Below are positions 18,822-27,092 of a stretch of 47,802 bases of DNA, piece by piece; the stretch's first letter is position 1; each line of letters opens with the position of its first letter. Source of the DNA: an uncultured Desulfovibrionaceae bacterium (GTDB lineage Bacteria; Desulfobacterota; Desulfovibrionia; Desulfovibrionales; Desulfovibrionaceae). The stretch is taken from assembly GCA_964370125.1 (NCBI GenBank), contig CAYJIB010000003.1:1785-49586 (forward strand), in the 5' to 3' direction. The notes beneath the pieces were generated by a model. That model was given only the letters and a program-made list of their open reading frames with translations, was not told the DNA's origin and did not search any database. The translations under genes were made by a program, and so were the position numbers.

Positions 18822-21461
18822 ATGTCTAATCAAGTTATCAAATCTCAAGTGTTGTCAATGTTAGAGACAGGTAAAACGGTTACTTGGCCTGCTAACATCG
18901 TAAAGCCAGAAACAGGCTTTACCCCAAAAGAAGTTAAAGGCAATCCATCTACAGAGCGTACCAAAAGAATGCAAAAGCGTTTCTTTGAAGGCAAGTGTCG
19001 CTTTGATACAGAAATGCCTCTTCTCTATACAGAAGGTTGGAAAGCCGCTGCTGGTCAGCCAATGTACATCCGCAGAGGTATGGCTTATAAGCACATGCTT
19101 TCAAACATGACTCCGCTGATCAAAGAAGACGAAGTTATCGTAATGTCAAAGCACCGCTACACACGCGGCGCCACCATGTATCCACAAGTTTCTACAAAGT
19201 TTATGATCGACTTCCTCAACATGGCTGTTGATGAAGAAGCAAAGCTCTTTAGCGTAAAAGGTACAGCCGCTGCTCACAATATCGATGAAGAAGGCTGGAC
19301 AAAGCTCGGTCAATTCTACGGTATCCCAACTGCTGAAGTTGAGCCAATGAAAGAGTGTTTGGAATACTGGAAGACACGTTCTATTGAAGACGTAGCCGAA
19401 AGCGTAATGGCTGACCTCTTCCCAGAGTACGAAGACTTGCTTCGTGGTACAAAGATCGGTATGTGGCCTGGTTCTGGTGTTGCCTCTGGTTGTGACGGCC
19501 GCTTTAGCCCAGCTTATGACATCGTAATCTACCGTGGTCTTGAAGACGTTATCAGAGAATGTAAAGAAAAAATCGCCAATGCCCAAGCTATTAAGCAAGA
19601 AGGCTCTGAGCAGATCTTCTTCTGGAGAGGCTGTATTCTCGCTTGTGAAGGTATGATTCAGTGGGCGAAAAATTATGCCGCTTCCGCTCGAGAAGCAGCA
19701 AAAACAGCCACCGGCGCACGCAAAGACGAACTCTTGCAAATGGCTGACACTCTTGAGTGGGTACCTGCAAAGCCTGCCCGTACGTACCGTGAAGGTATGC
19801 AAGCCGCTTGGGCCGGTCACATGATGGTGTGGAATGACTCTATGTTCCTTGGCCTTTCTCCAGGCCGTTGGGGTCAAATGCTTTATCCTCTTTATAAAGC
19901 CGACATCGAAGCTGGCCGCATCACTGACGAAGAAGTCTTGGAATTGTGGGAAATCATGCGTATTAAGTTTAGCTCTGAAGAGTTCATTACTCCTTCAGGC
20001 TGGGCAGCAACCGCTTCTGCAAACTCCTTCCAGCACATGGTAGCTGTTGGTGTTGACGATAAAGGCAGACCTCTTGAAAACCCAGTTGAACTTGCTATGC
20101 TTCAAGCTGGTATCAATATGCCTACTCCACAGCCAACACTTGGTGTATTCGTAGATGGCAAAACCCCAAGAAAACTCTTGCTCAAAGCCGCTGAATGTAC
20201 AAAAGCCGGTAACGGTTATCCCGCATGGTTTAACTATGACATGATGGTAAAGCATCTTCTTTGGTCACATGCAGAAGAAGGTATCACCATGGAAGACGCC
20301 AAAAACGTCGCTATCTCTGGTTGCGTAGAAATCGGCGCACAAGGCACAACTCACCCGATCTCTCACCCAGCATTCTACAATCAAGCCAAAACTCTTGAGC
20401 TTGCTCTTAATGACGGTGTTGACCCAAGAACTGGCGAAGTGTGCTACAAAGGCCTTAAAGCTATCAATAGCTATCAAGACGTTTGGGACAACTTTGTTGC
20501 CATTCGTGAACACTACATGAAAGTCTACATGCGTTATTGGAACTATGTAATGGCTATCTTCCGTGAAAACCATCCAAAAATCGCTTCTTCCGTACTTATG
20601 CATGACTGCGTAAAAGTGGGACGTCCGATTTGCTGTAACGGTATCCGCTACAATAAGTCCGTAACCTTGCTTGAGTCTGGTACTGTAAACGTATGTAACA
20701 GCTTGGCCGCTCTTAAAAAGCTCGTATGGGAAGACAAAAAATACACCTACGCTGACTTTAAAGACGCTATGGACAACAACTTCGGTTATATGCTTGGCGC
20801 AGAGAACAACAACTTCTCTATGCTCAACCAAGAAATCGATCCTGCAAAACACGAAAAGTATGTACAAATCCACAGAGACGTACTCGAAGCGCCTAAGTTT
20901 GGTAACGACGATGACTTCGTTGACGACATCTTTGTTGACTTGTGGCAAGATTATGACCGTGTATGTGCCTCTGAAACAACCTATCTTGGCTACCGCTGGT
21001 TGACAGCTGCCTTGTCAATCTCTGCTCACGGCCCACACGGACGTGTAACAGGCGCAGGCCCAGACGGACGTCTTGCTGGCGTAACACTTTGTGACGGTAT
21101 CCTTTCTGCCGCACCAGGAACAGACGTAAACGGCGCTCTCGCTCTTATGCGCTCTGGTGTAAAGCTTGATCCAACTGAATACCGCAGTGTACAACTCAAC
21201 ATGAAGTTCCACCCTTCAGCCGTAGAAGGCGAAGAAGGCAGCAACAACTTTGTTGACTTCATCAAATCCTACTTTGACATGGGCGGCTTCCACGTACAGT
21301 TCAACGTAGTTGACTCCAACATGTTGCGTGACGCACAAGCAAAGCCTGAAGAATACCGTGACCTTATGGTACGTGTAGCTGGCTTTAGCTCATACTGGGG
21401 CGAGCTTGGCAAACCTATACAAGACGAAGTTATCGCACGTACAGAATACAACGCGATGTAA
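18822..21461 (+). CDS. Glycyl radical enzyme (PFL-like superfamily, GCVE Cys-loop eliminase/decarboxylase type), substrate unknown
   Basis: Glycyl radical motif MVRVAGFSSYW near the C-terminus. Thiyl loop ISGCVEIGAQG. GRE blocks APKFGNDDDFVD and GAGPDGRLAG. AGGAGG RBS precedes the ATG at 18822. Confidence 0.95.
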   Translation: MSNQVIKSQVLSMLETGKTVTWPANIVKPETGFTPKEVKGNPSTERTKRMQKRFFEGKCRFDTEMPLLYTEGWKAAAGQPMYIRRGMAYKHMLSNMTPLIKEDEVIVMSKHRYTRGATMYPQVSTKFMIDFLNMAVDEEAKLFSVKGTAAAHNIDEEGWTKLGQFYGIPTAEVEPMKECLEYWKTRSIEDVAESVMADLFPEYEDLLRGTKIGMWPGSGVASGCDGRFSPAYDIVIYRGLEDVIRECKEKIANAQAIKQEGSEQIFFWRGCILACEGMIQWAKNYAASAREAAKTATGARKDELLQMADTLEWVPAKPARTYREGMQAAWAGHMMVWNDSMFLGLSPGRWGQMLYPLYKADIEAGRITDEEVLELWEIMRIKFSSEEFITPSGWAATASANSFQHMVAVGVDDKGRPLENPVELAMLQAGINMPTPQPTLGVFVDGKTPRKLLLKAAECTKAGNGYPAWFNYDMMVKHLLWSHAEEGITMEDAKNVAISGCVEIGAQGTTHPISHPAFYNQAKTLELALNDGVDPRTGEVCYKGLKAINSYQDVWDNFVAIREHYMKVYMRYWNYVMAIFRENHPKIASSVLMHDCVKVGRPICCNGIRYNKSVTLLESGTVNVCNSLAALKKLVWEDKKYTYADFKDAMDNNFGYMLGAENNNFSMLNQEIDPAKHEKYVQIHRDVLEAPKFGNDDDFVDDIFVDLWQDYDRVCASETTYLGYRWLTAALSISAHGPHGRVTGAGPDGRLAGVTLCDGILSAAPGTDVNGALALMRSGVKLDPTEYRSVQLNMKFHPSAVEGEEGSNNFVDFIKSYFDMGGFHVQFNVVDSNMLRDAQAKPEEYRDLMVRVAGFSSYWGELGKPIQDEVIARTEYNAM

Positions 21462-21473
21462 TCTATAAACCTT

Positions 21474-21505
21474 AGCAAATAGGGGACTTAGCTCCCCTAT
21501 TTGCT
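21474..21505 (+). terminator. 13-bp-stem hairpin after the GRE gene (no T-run; partial terminator or mRNA stabiliser)
   Basis: agcaaatagggga / tcccctatttgct with a 6-nt loop. Confidence 0.45.
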
Positions 21506-21640
21506 GAACAAGGCCTTATCAATAAAAGACATTGCACAATTGTTTTTAACAAAAGATTGAATATAATCGTGCAAGAAACTACAAAAACAACAATAAGGCC
21601 AAGAAGACAATTATGGTGCAGTTTTCAATCTGTAATACAT

Positions 21641-21680
21641 AGGGGAAAGTTGCCATTTTCTTTCCCCTTTAATCTCTTTT
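21641..21680 (+). terminator. Terminator-like hairpin in the leader of the first locus MFS gene (candidate attenuator)
   Basis: aggggaaag / ctttcccct followed by ttaatctctttt, ending about 22 nt before the start codon. Confidence 0.35.
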
Positions 21681-21702
21681 AATGAGACGGGAGAGAATTG
21701 GT

Positions 21703-26161: not shown

Positions 26162-26251
26162 TTCAATCTTGCTTTACCAAAATGCTTTTATAAAAACAAA
26201 ACAATTTTGCCGAAGAAAAACACAGAAGAATAATTTTCCTCTAACACTTCC

Positions 26252-26301
26252 TCCTCCTGTTTATAGAAGCTTTATGCTCAACATAAACAGGAGGTTTTTT
26301 T
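26252..26301 (+). terminator. Second, strong rho-independent terminator
   Basis: cctcctgtttat / ataaacaggagg followed by eight or more T residues. Confidence 0.7.
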
Positions 26302-26462
26302 TGTGCAAGTGTACAGTTCACAGCAAATAAGCGGCTTGTTTTCACATAATTTAAGCGATGCTCAAAAAAAGGGCATATTTCACTAGGAAGAGTAGATATT
26401 TTTCGATATTTTGTTAAAAAATAGACTTTTCTTCTGTAAGGTTGCTTTTTTAGGAAGATTTC

Positions 26463-26491
26463 TTGACAAGCGCATAGAAATAAGGTATTCT
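26463..26491 (+). promoter_or_regulatory. Sigma70-type promoter of the DUF4125-like gene
   Basis: TTGACA-N17-TATTCT. Confidence 0.5.
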
Positions 26492-26540
26492 TAAGCTTGT
26501 GGTGAAAATTTTAATAAACAAAGACCATAAGGAGAACATT

Positions 26541-27092
26541 ATGAGCACAGAAAGCAGTCGTGATACAATTATTCAGGCAATTGTCAACATTGAAGAAGCC
26601 ATGTTTGACAGAGTGACAAATGAAGGTGGCAGAGCTTCTTGTCAAGACCAGCTCAAAACCTTCAGAATGATGCGTGAAATTGTACAAGTTGCACACTCAA
26701 ACGCCTTCTTGAATGAATACCTTAAGTTTCTTACCGAAGCTCAAGAAGCAGGTCGCAACTTGATGACCGAAAAATACGCCATCATGCAAGGACTTATCCC
26801 AAAAGATTTGAACGACACCATGGAATACATCGTTTCAACCGAAATGGCGTGGATGGAAGAAATCAAAAAACAATACCCTAACTTGTTTAAGAAAGAAGGC
26901 CGCTTTAGAGATTATCTCGAAGGCGAGATCCAAACTTTCTCTGATGAATGTGTTCACCTTTATTACCAAGAGATCGTAGAAGCCGAAATGGCGAAAAAGA
27001 ATCTTGTGCGTGTGCGCTATGAAAAATTGTATGAGCTTCTTGGCCGTGGTAGCCTTGCAGAAGCCAACGAAAAAGCTGGAGCCGCAAGCTAA
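26541..27092 (+). CDS. Conserved hypothetical protein, DUF4125-like
   Basis: ATG at 26541 follows aaggaga. The motif MFDRVTNEGGRASCQ..TF.MMR and the GRNLMTEKYA block match my recollection of DUF4125. This has not been verified by search. Confidence 0.6.
   Translation: MSTESSRDTIIQAIVNIEEAMFDRVTNEGGRASCQDQLKTFRMMREIVQVAHSNAFLNEYLKFLTEAQEAGRNLMTEKYAIMQGLIPKDLNDTMEYIVSTEMAWMEEIKKQYPNLFKKEGRFRDYLEGEIQTFSDECVHLYYQEIVEAEMAKKNLVRVRYEKLYELLGRGSLAEANEKAGAAS

Follow-up and report, generated by a model that had tools for sequence, protein, structure and literature searches.

Within the arylacetate-decarboxylating glycyl-radical enzymes (GREs), indoleacetate decarboxylase (IAD) and 4-hydroxyphenylacetate decarboxylase (HPAD) form a sister pair that leaves the phenylacetate decarboxylase PhdB outside (Liu et al. 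2018, PMC6181972), and the loop extensions of the two enzymes were described as a shared feature of the IAD/HPAD subclass in a cryo-EM study of the Olsenella uli enzyme, OuIAD (Imrich et al. 2026 preprint, PMC13232127). The characterised OsIAD is specific for indoleacetate and has no activity on phenylacetate or 4-hydroxyphenylacetate. The gene order GRE-MFS-activase, in which MFS stands for a carrier of the major facilitator superfamily, is a published IAD cluster type; an uptake role was proposed for the carrier, two genera of IAD relatives were named among those whose IAD cluster includes an MFS gene, and the 2018 survey listed IAD in Clostridiales and Coriobacteriales only (Liu et al. 2018, PMC6181972). 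Here we describe a locus on a 47,802-nucleotide stretch of DNA (hereafter the window) from an uncultured Desulfovibrionaceae bacterium (assembly GCA_964370125.1, contig CAYJIB010000003.1). Open reading frame (ORF) and domain scans of the window identified five plus-strand genes, encoding in order a GRE, a first MFS carrier (MFS-A), a GRE-activating radical S-adenosylmethionine (SAM) enzyme, a second MFS carrier (MFS-B) and a DUF4125 protein. An initial annotation had presented them as the locus of an orphan GRE. We find that the core of the locus is very probably an iad-mfsA-iadAE skatole operon, closed by a strong terminator at 24144-24171 and followed by two genes of HPAD-cluster type that are transcribed on their own.

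The GRE contains PFL-like and Gly_radical Pfam domains (E = 9e-29 for Gly_radical), a GCVE loop starting at residue 500 (Cys501, Glu503) and the glycyl motif RVAGFSSYW starting at residue 851 (Gly854). The ORF and domain scans bore out the length and both motifs given by the initial annotation, and its hand-counted Cys and Gly positions and their spacing of 353 residues proved exact. Against NCBIfam the protein matched the IAD equivalog NF033718 over model positions 1-868 of 868 with 1522.8 bits (cutoff 1100); the next-best model, NF033715 for the HPAD large subunit, gave 670 bits, below its cutoff of 1150. Identity was 71% to the IADs of Faecalicatena and Clostridium D5 and 63% to the Collinsella IAD. 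The relatives recovered by the homologue search form one continuous family: no protein of the collection is more than 74% identical to the window GRE, the homologues at 70-74% have either no name or the label 'indoleacetate decarboxylase [Acidaminococcales bacterium]', those at 52-59% include the IADs of Clostridium botulinum and Clostridium aciditolerans, and the next drop, to 35-37%, corresponds to HPAD large subunits. Proteins from Acidaminococcales, Bacteroidales, Riflebacteria and other metagenome-assembled genomes (MAGs) are labelled as IAD by NCBI. In a neighbour-joining tree of 27 GREs, built without bootstrap, the window GRE falls inside the IAD clade, as sister to the Faecalicatena/Clostridium D5 enzymes and adjacent to those of Coriobacteriia. 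Its closest solved relative by sequence is the HPAD large subunit (PDB 2y8n/2yaj, 476.7 bits). No gene for an HpdC-like small subunit was detected in the window (tblastn with four HpdC sequences, E < 0.2), and domain and family scans revealed no microcompartment shell, aldehyde dehydrogenase, P5C reductase or sulfite-handling gene; these absences, reported by the initial annotation for the vicinity of the GRE, thus extend to the whole window. On these family assignments the window GRE is a member of the known IAD family, already nameable by standard annotation (PGAP rules) and with no added chemistry. The initial annotation was right to propose a single-subunit GRE of the arylacetate-decarboxylase type and to name the IAD clusters as the closest precedent. 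The term orphan is refuted by the equivalog match and the position within the IAD clade, together with the pocket residues and gene order described below. The initial annotation had also ascribed part of the extra length to an insert; the segment, which begins FGYMLGAENNN at residue 654, does exist, but it is not peculiar to this GRE, as HPAD aligns through it.

The substrate contacts reported from the cryo-EM work on OuIAD are Cys500, Glu502, Arg226, His514, Phe401, Phe517, Leu616, Leu730 and Ile731, to which the authors add Trp392, the gate residue, and a distal Cys at position 223 (PMC13232127). This numbering was transferred by using the 878-residue Collinsella IAD as a proxy, which matches OuIAD at ten positions (C223, R226, W392, F401, C500, E502, H514, F517, L616 and L730). 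All 11 pocket residues are identical in the window GRE (C224, R227, W394, F403, C501, E503, H515, F518, L617, L731 and I733), and six of these columns differ between HPADs and IAD. The phenol-binding Glu2 of HPAD (E637 in 2y8n) aligns with Leu617 of the window GRE, and His515 is kept; all HPADs examined have Glu and Gly, respectively, at these two columns. The absence of Glu2 and the conservation of His514 served as the IAD/HPAD discriminator in the discovery paper (Liu et al. 2018, PMC6181972). The Cys224 column holds Cys in the window GRE, in Faecalicatena and in Coriobacteriia, and Met or Leu in the Clostridium IADs. The view that the sequence does not reveal the substrate did not hold, since every published indole-3-acetate pocket residue is kept and the IAD equivalog is passed. 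The observation named in advance as one that would make this a known system was a conserved active site in common with an already characterised GRE, IAD among the examples; such sharing was largely found, by way of the Collinsella proxy.

Gene order points in the same direction. Five other IAD loci show the order GRE-MFS-activase with an MFS-A orthologue in the middle (L001-L004 by tblastn of the window proteins, and L170, which has the same layout). The carrier located between GRE and activase is 60-65% identical to MFS-A in L001, L002 and L003 (Collinsella) and 44% in L004. The Clostridium-type loci L005-L007 and locus L169 have GRE and activase without an MFS gene, and the division between IAD loci with and without a carrier fits the split into arylacetate scavengers and amino-acid fermenters made in 2018 (Liu et al., PMC6181972). 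The window activase passes the generic GRE activase model TIGR02494 (319 bits, cutoff 174). It carries a CX3CX2C motif (C34/C38/C41) and nine more Cys in two ferredoxin-like motifs, an arrangement also described for OsIADAE (Liu et al. 2018, PMC6181972) and which implies one radical-SAM cluster and two putative auxiliary clusters; the earlier 'di-cluster' label thus named the right kind of enzyme and too few clusters. An MFS-B-type carrier or a DUF4125 gene was found within 10 kb of none of nine other IAD-clade loci, and the five-gene combination of the window was not seen in any other fetched locus. The five genes do not form one conserved unit, because MFS-B and DUF4125 are absent from the nine other IAD loci and terminators set the two apart from the operon. 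Conservation of the neighbourhood thus covers GRE, MFS-A and activase and stops there: the conserved unit is three genes, iad-mfsA-iadAE (18822-24119), not five. MFS-B and DUF4125 lie outside the conserved IAD cluster, probably as separate transcription units, with terminator-like hairpins of their own. The two MFS genes, which had been said to bracket the GRE, bracket the activase instead.

The route proposed for the operon follows the characterised Olsenella enzymes. MFS-A would import indole-3-acetate from the environment. The radical-SAM activase would cleave SAM and abstract a hydrogen atom at Gly854, and the resulting glycyl radical would be passed to Cys501. The Cys501 thiyl radical would then carry out a Kolbe-type oxidation of the nearby substrate carboxylate, with Glu503 and a bound water serving as proton relay; CO2 would be lost, and the skatolyl radical would regain a hydrogen atom from Cys501 to give skatole. 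The indole ring would be held by a cation-pi contact with Arg227, a hydrogen bond from the indole N-H to His515, and the hydrophobic residues Phe403, Phe518, Leu617, Leu731 and Ile733.

Table 1. Genes, hairpins and promoter-like site of the locus (window positions unless a locus is named).
Feature	Position	Strand	Remarks
GRE, IAD family	18822..21461	+	879 aa from ATG, AGGAGG upstream; database gene call also 879 aa
Hairpin, 14 bp, directly 3' of GRE stop codon, without T-run	21473..21506	+	folding
MFS-A, IAD-cluster-type carrier, presumed indole-3-acetate importer	21703..23043	+	PF07690; alternative start 21682
GRE-activating radical SAM enzyme, IAD activase type	23175..24119	+	314 aa
Intrinsic-terminator-like hairpin, 12-bp stem then T-run, closing the IAD operon	24144..24171	+	terminator scan; 25 nt past activase stop codon; -17.6 kcal/mol, z = -4.5 (folding)
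MFS-B, HPAD-cluster-type carrier, apparently monocistronic	24818..26116	+	PF07690
Hairpin, 15 bp, 3' of MFS-B stop codon	26128..26161	+	-22.3 kcal/mol, z = -6.05 (folding)
Second terminator-like hairpin, 12-bp stem (26253-26294) then T8	26253..26302	+	-21.5 kcal/mol, z = -4.9 (folding)
Promoter-like site TTGACA-17-TATTCT, 5' of DUF4125	26463..26491	+	consensus scan
DUF4125 protein (PF13526)	26541..27092	+	183 aa, all-helical; recurrent neighbour of GRE-activase pairs
Other DUF4125 genes beside GRE-activase pairs	L166 8001-8579; L168 8001-8627; L112 6267-6791; L163 8001-8549		

Two start codons needed a choice between alternatives. DUF4125 starts at the ATG at 26541, not at the GTG at 26499, and its 183 residues equal the database call P0208. 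For MFS-A the start is most likely 21703 and not 21682: the 453-aa form is missing from the protein collection, and homologue alignments start at residues 8-10. The 99-nt stretch that holds the post-GRE hairpin (21462-21560) folds with -27.2 kcal/mol (z = -4.66), and the hairpin, perhaps an intercistronic stabiliser or attenuator, may determine how much GRE is made relative to the downstream transporter and activase. The initial annotation had given DUF4125 its own promoter. The PF13526 gene and a promoter-like site were indeed found, but shuffled sequence yields such sites about as often: the region has 20 matches against 16.7 expected, which is not distinguishable from chance. Rfam returned no match at gathering thresholds across the whole window, and thus no riboswitch in the gaps 17864-18821 or 24172-24817. 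The first gap, upstream of the GRE, is an AT-rich intergenic region of ~960 bp (~37-39% GC) with no regulator gene adjoining. The second, of ~650 bp between the IAD terminator and MFS-B, contains a 54-aa ORF (24417-24581) whose C-terminus is Cys-rich (ACIFGERACICPCFG). In three other loci a GerE-type regulator, a histidine kinase and an HD-domain response regulator flank IAD (L001 15163-19248, L169 3663-7347, L170 5416-9151), the GerE-type regulator of L169 having a PocR sensor domain; this trio may be the indoleacetate-sensing system of these organisms.

The second carrier has its relatives elsewhere. By tblastn, MFS-B orthologues with 48-55% identity were found in L025, L026, L029, L030, L034, L036 and L040, beside GREs that are ~35% identical to the window GRE. 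In the five loci tested (L025, L026, L029, L036 and L040) these GREs score 1617-1664 bits with NF033715, the equivalog of the HPAD large subunit, well above its cutoff of 1150, and in L025, L026, L036 and L040 a short ORF next to the GRE passes NF033716, the model of the small subunit. The HPAD cluster is laid out as HpdB-HpdC-MFS-HpdA, often followed by DUF4125, and independent gene calls with Pfam domains gave the same layout in L163-L165. An identity matrix separated the two window carriers: MFS-A is 44-65% identical to IAD-cluster carriers and 26-30% to HPAD-cluster carriers, whereas MFS-B is 49-56% identical to HPAD-cluster carriers (L026, L029, L036 and L040) and 27-31% to IAD-cluster carriers. 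On these identities the carriers of IAD and HPAD clusters form two distinct, cleanly separated subfamilies and, by analogy with its orthologues, the cargo of MFS-B would most likely be 4-hydroxyphenylacetate or a related arylacetate. A widespread HPAD lineage of the human gut (~34 contigs) has a ~220-aa protein without NCBIfam match between MFS and DUF4125 (L113 9337-10002; L029 7272-7931); in L113 and L029, both of which were mapped in detail, DUF4125 is present as two tandem genes.

The window DUF4125 protein matches PF13526 with E = 1.5e-41 and 142.7 bits (gathering threshold 25), and its AlphaFold model is all-helical with a pLDDT of 95.1. Neither a sequence profile search nor Foldseek gave a significant PDB match, and the literature on DUF4125 contains incidental mentions only, with no published function. 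A metagenome scan with a DUF4125 alignment returned 80 loci, which fall into 19 clusters at 80% identity; 12 of the 19 have a GRE and/or an activase in their flanks, in a sample biased by a query alignment of GRE-linked copies and by the short flanks of several negative clusters. Six homologues were also found from the window sequence alone and their contexts checked. Three of the contexts found in this way are HPAD clusters (P0215 in two places, P0214). In Neomoorella glycerini DUF4125 lies in a cluster resembling that of benzylsuccinate synthase (BSS), its start overlapping the activase stop codon, and in a Desulfovibrio MAG it lies near a PFL2-type GRE and its activase. Two homologues adjoin DUF4037 with no GRE nearby, one of them also with a 292-aa radical SAM gene. 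In another set of loci DUF4125 is paired with ~810-aa GREs that fall below every equivalog cutoff. A plasmid tblastn aimed at a DUF4125-bssG link gave one unannotated Fusobacterium match only. Altogether, at least four GRE classes (IAD, HPAD, BSS-like and uncharacterised PFL2-type) have members whose GRE-activase pair is accompanied by DUF4125, which is often paired with DUF4037; in HPAD, BSS-like and PFL2-type clusters the DUF4125 gene directly follows that of the activase. Because only 6 of 80 GRE-centred loci carry it, across several GRE classes, DUF4125 is an optional accessory partner of GRE/activase systems and not a substrate-specific one. That it is a previously unrecognised general accessory factor, which might help to install, protect or turn over the radical, is a tentative and somewhat doubtful extension. 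The association across classes is the only lead of the locus with some novelty, and it nominates an uncharacterised family for the GRE field.

How the two downstream genes relate to the operon admits several explanations. They may be functionally unconnected to IAD, either as the leftover of a former HPAD cluster or because they serve an HPAD elsewhere in the genome; we regard this as possible, though on balance unlikely. The HpdB-HpdC-MFS-HpdA-DUF4125 layout of HPAD clusters, the lack of both genes around the nine other IAD loci and the terminators flanking each of them are all consistent with such a separation, as is the nearest IAD-bearing MAG, SUG145, in which IAD (L002) and HPAD (L012) occupy separate loci. 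However, tblastn at E < 1 found no remnants of HpdB, HpdC or HpdA in the window, the MFS-B and DUF4125 ORFs are both intact, and DUF4125 is not HPAD-specific, so it could equally serve IAD. Alternatively, the enzyme might be a decarboxylase of the IAD family that accepts a wider or different set of arylacetates, for example substituted indoleacetates or 4-hydroxyphenylacetate, with MFS-B bringing the second substrate. The HPAD-type carrier adjoining the operon in a window without HPAD, and the Cys224 that sets this subclade apart from the Clostridium IADs at a pocket-end position, would suit this explanation, but the first shell matches that of OuIAD residue for residue, with Leu617 where HPAD has its phenol-binding Glu, and the inactivity of OsIAD on phenylacetate and 4-hydroxyphenylacetate further argues that a broadened range is improbable. 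It is very improbable that the five genes are one functional unit for a new anionic substrate: they are close together on one strand, in a combination of their own and with a GRE that has no match above 74% identity, but this GRE lies far above the curated IAD cutoff with a pocket identical to that of IAD, terminator-like hairpins lie between the units, and in other loci MFS-B and DUF4125 are each conserved with partners of their own, which differ between the two. Of the function first proposed, an anion and its uptake by an MFS carrier stand, with a three-gene operon taking the place of the five-gene unit.

Several observations weigh against the assignment of the core as a skatole operon. The sequences of OsIAD (UniProt A0A100YXA1) and OuIAD are absent from the homologue searches and the genome scan, and identity to them was inferred through the Collinsella proxy, in which OuIAD Ile731 corresponds to Ser731/Ile732, a one-residue ambiguity of numbering. 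The 70%-plus subclade that holds the window GRE is known from sequences alone, a point that also favours a broadened substrate range. The best family of the activase is the IAD activase model NF033719, with 396.7 bits just under its cutoff of 425. An HPAD-type carrier without HPAD, next to an IAD supposed to be strictly specific, stays unexplained. Finally, no regulator adjoins the window GRE, and the GerE-type regulator, histidine kinase and response regulator of L001, L169 and L170 are absent from the window.

The remainder of the window encodes, among others, LptA/B/C, KdsA/C, RicT/YaaT, ComEC, flagellin and MetG. Judged by gene content, with genes for LPS export and Kdo present, such a set would suit the chromosome of a diderm Firmicute (Negativicutes-like). 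Every window protein tested is an NCBI singleton at 90% identity; the lineage is therefore poorly sampled. Just upstream of the GRE and on the same strand lie three tandem MFS paralogues (14000-15253, 15318-16562 and 16598-17863), which are 48-57% mutually identical and have no curated-family match; they were rejected as part of the unit, having no relatives in 81 fetched GRE loci. Directly 3' of DUF4125, a ClpA/ClpB-like double-AAA+ protein under the ClpA equivalog cutoff is encoded at 27138-29591. A ClpA-like gene, 36% identical to the window copy, also lies 3' of DUF4125 in the HPAD locus L026 (16407-19352), but none of the 80 metagenome DUF4125 loci has one; it was likewise rejected, and the adjacency is probably a coincidence. 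About 9-10 kb upstream of the GRE are genes for a permease of the 'auxin efflux carrier' family (Mem_trans, 8432-9460) and a Phenol_MetA_deg outer-membrane channel (9676-10602); the presence of an 'auxin' permease near an IAD whose substrate is the auxin indole-3-acetate may be a coincidence of names. On the minus strand, a 1017-aa ORF (40882-43935) has no Pfam or NCBIfam match.

Skatole, the product of IAD, is a faecal malodorant, a livestock lung toxin and a gut-derived metabolite of medical interest, and a further IAD operon adds modestly to its candidate producers. The two MFS subfamilies provide testable candidates for indoleacetate and hydroxyphenylacetate uptake.

Among the known systems, PhdB is likewise a GRE arylacetate decarboxylase, placed by the literature outside the IAD/HPAD pair. 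HPAD (HpdBCA; PDB 2y8n/2yaj) differs in its ~35% identity to the window GRE, in the small [4Fe-4S] subunit for which the window has no gene, and in E637, replaced by Leu617; it is alike in the loop extensions common to IAD and HPAD, the CXE motif and the decarboxylation chemistry, and MFS-B and DUF4125 of the window are of the types found in HPAD clusters. From the described IAD systems (PMC6181972, PMC13232127) the window departs by the HPAD-type MFS and DUF4125 genes downstream, by a nearest database protein that is at most 74% identical, and by the missing sensor-regulator trio. It agrees with the OsIAD/OuIAD type in the single-subunit GRE of ~880 aa, the Cys loop, the glycyl motif and the 11 pocket residues, in the GRE-MFS-activase order, and in an activase that combines CX3CX2C with an eight-Cys ferredoxin-like insert.

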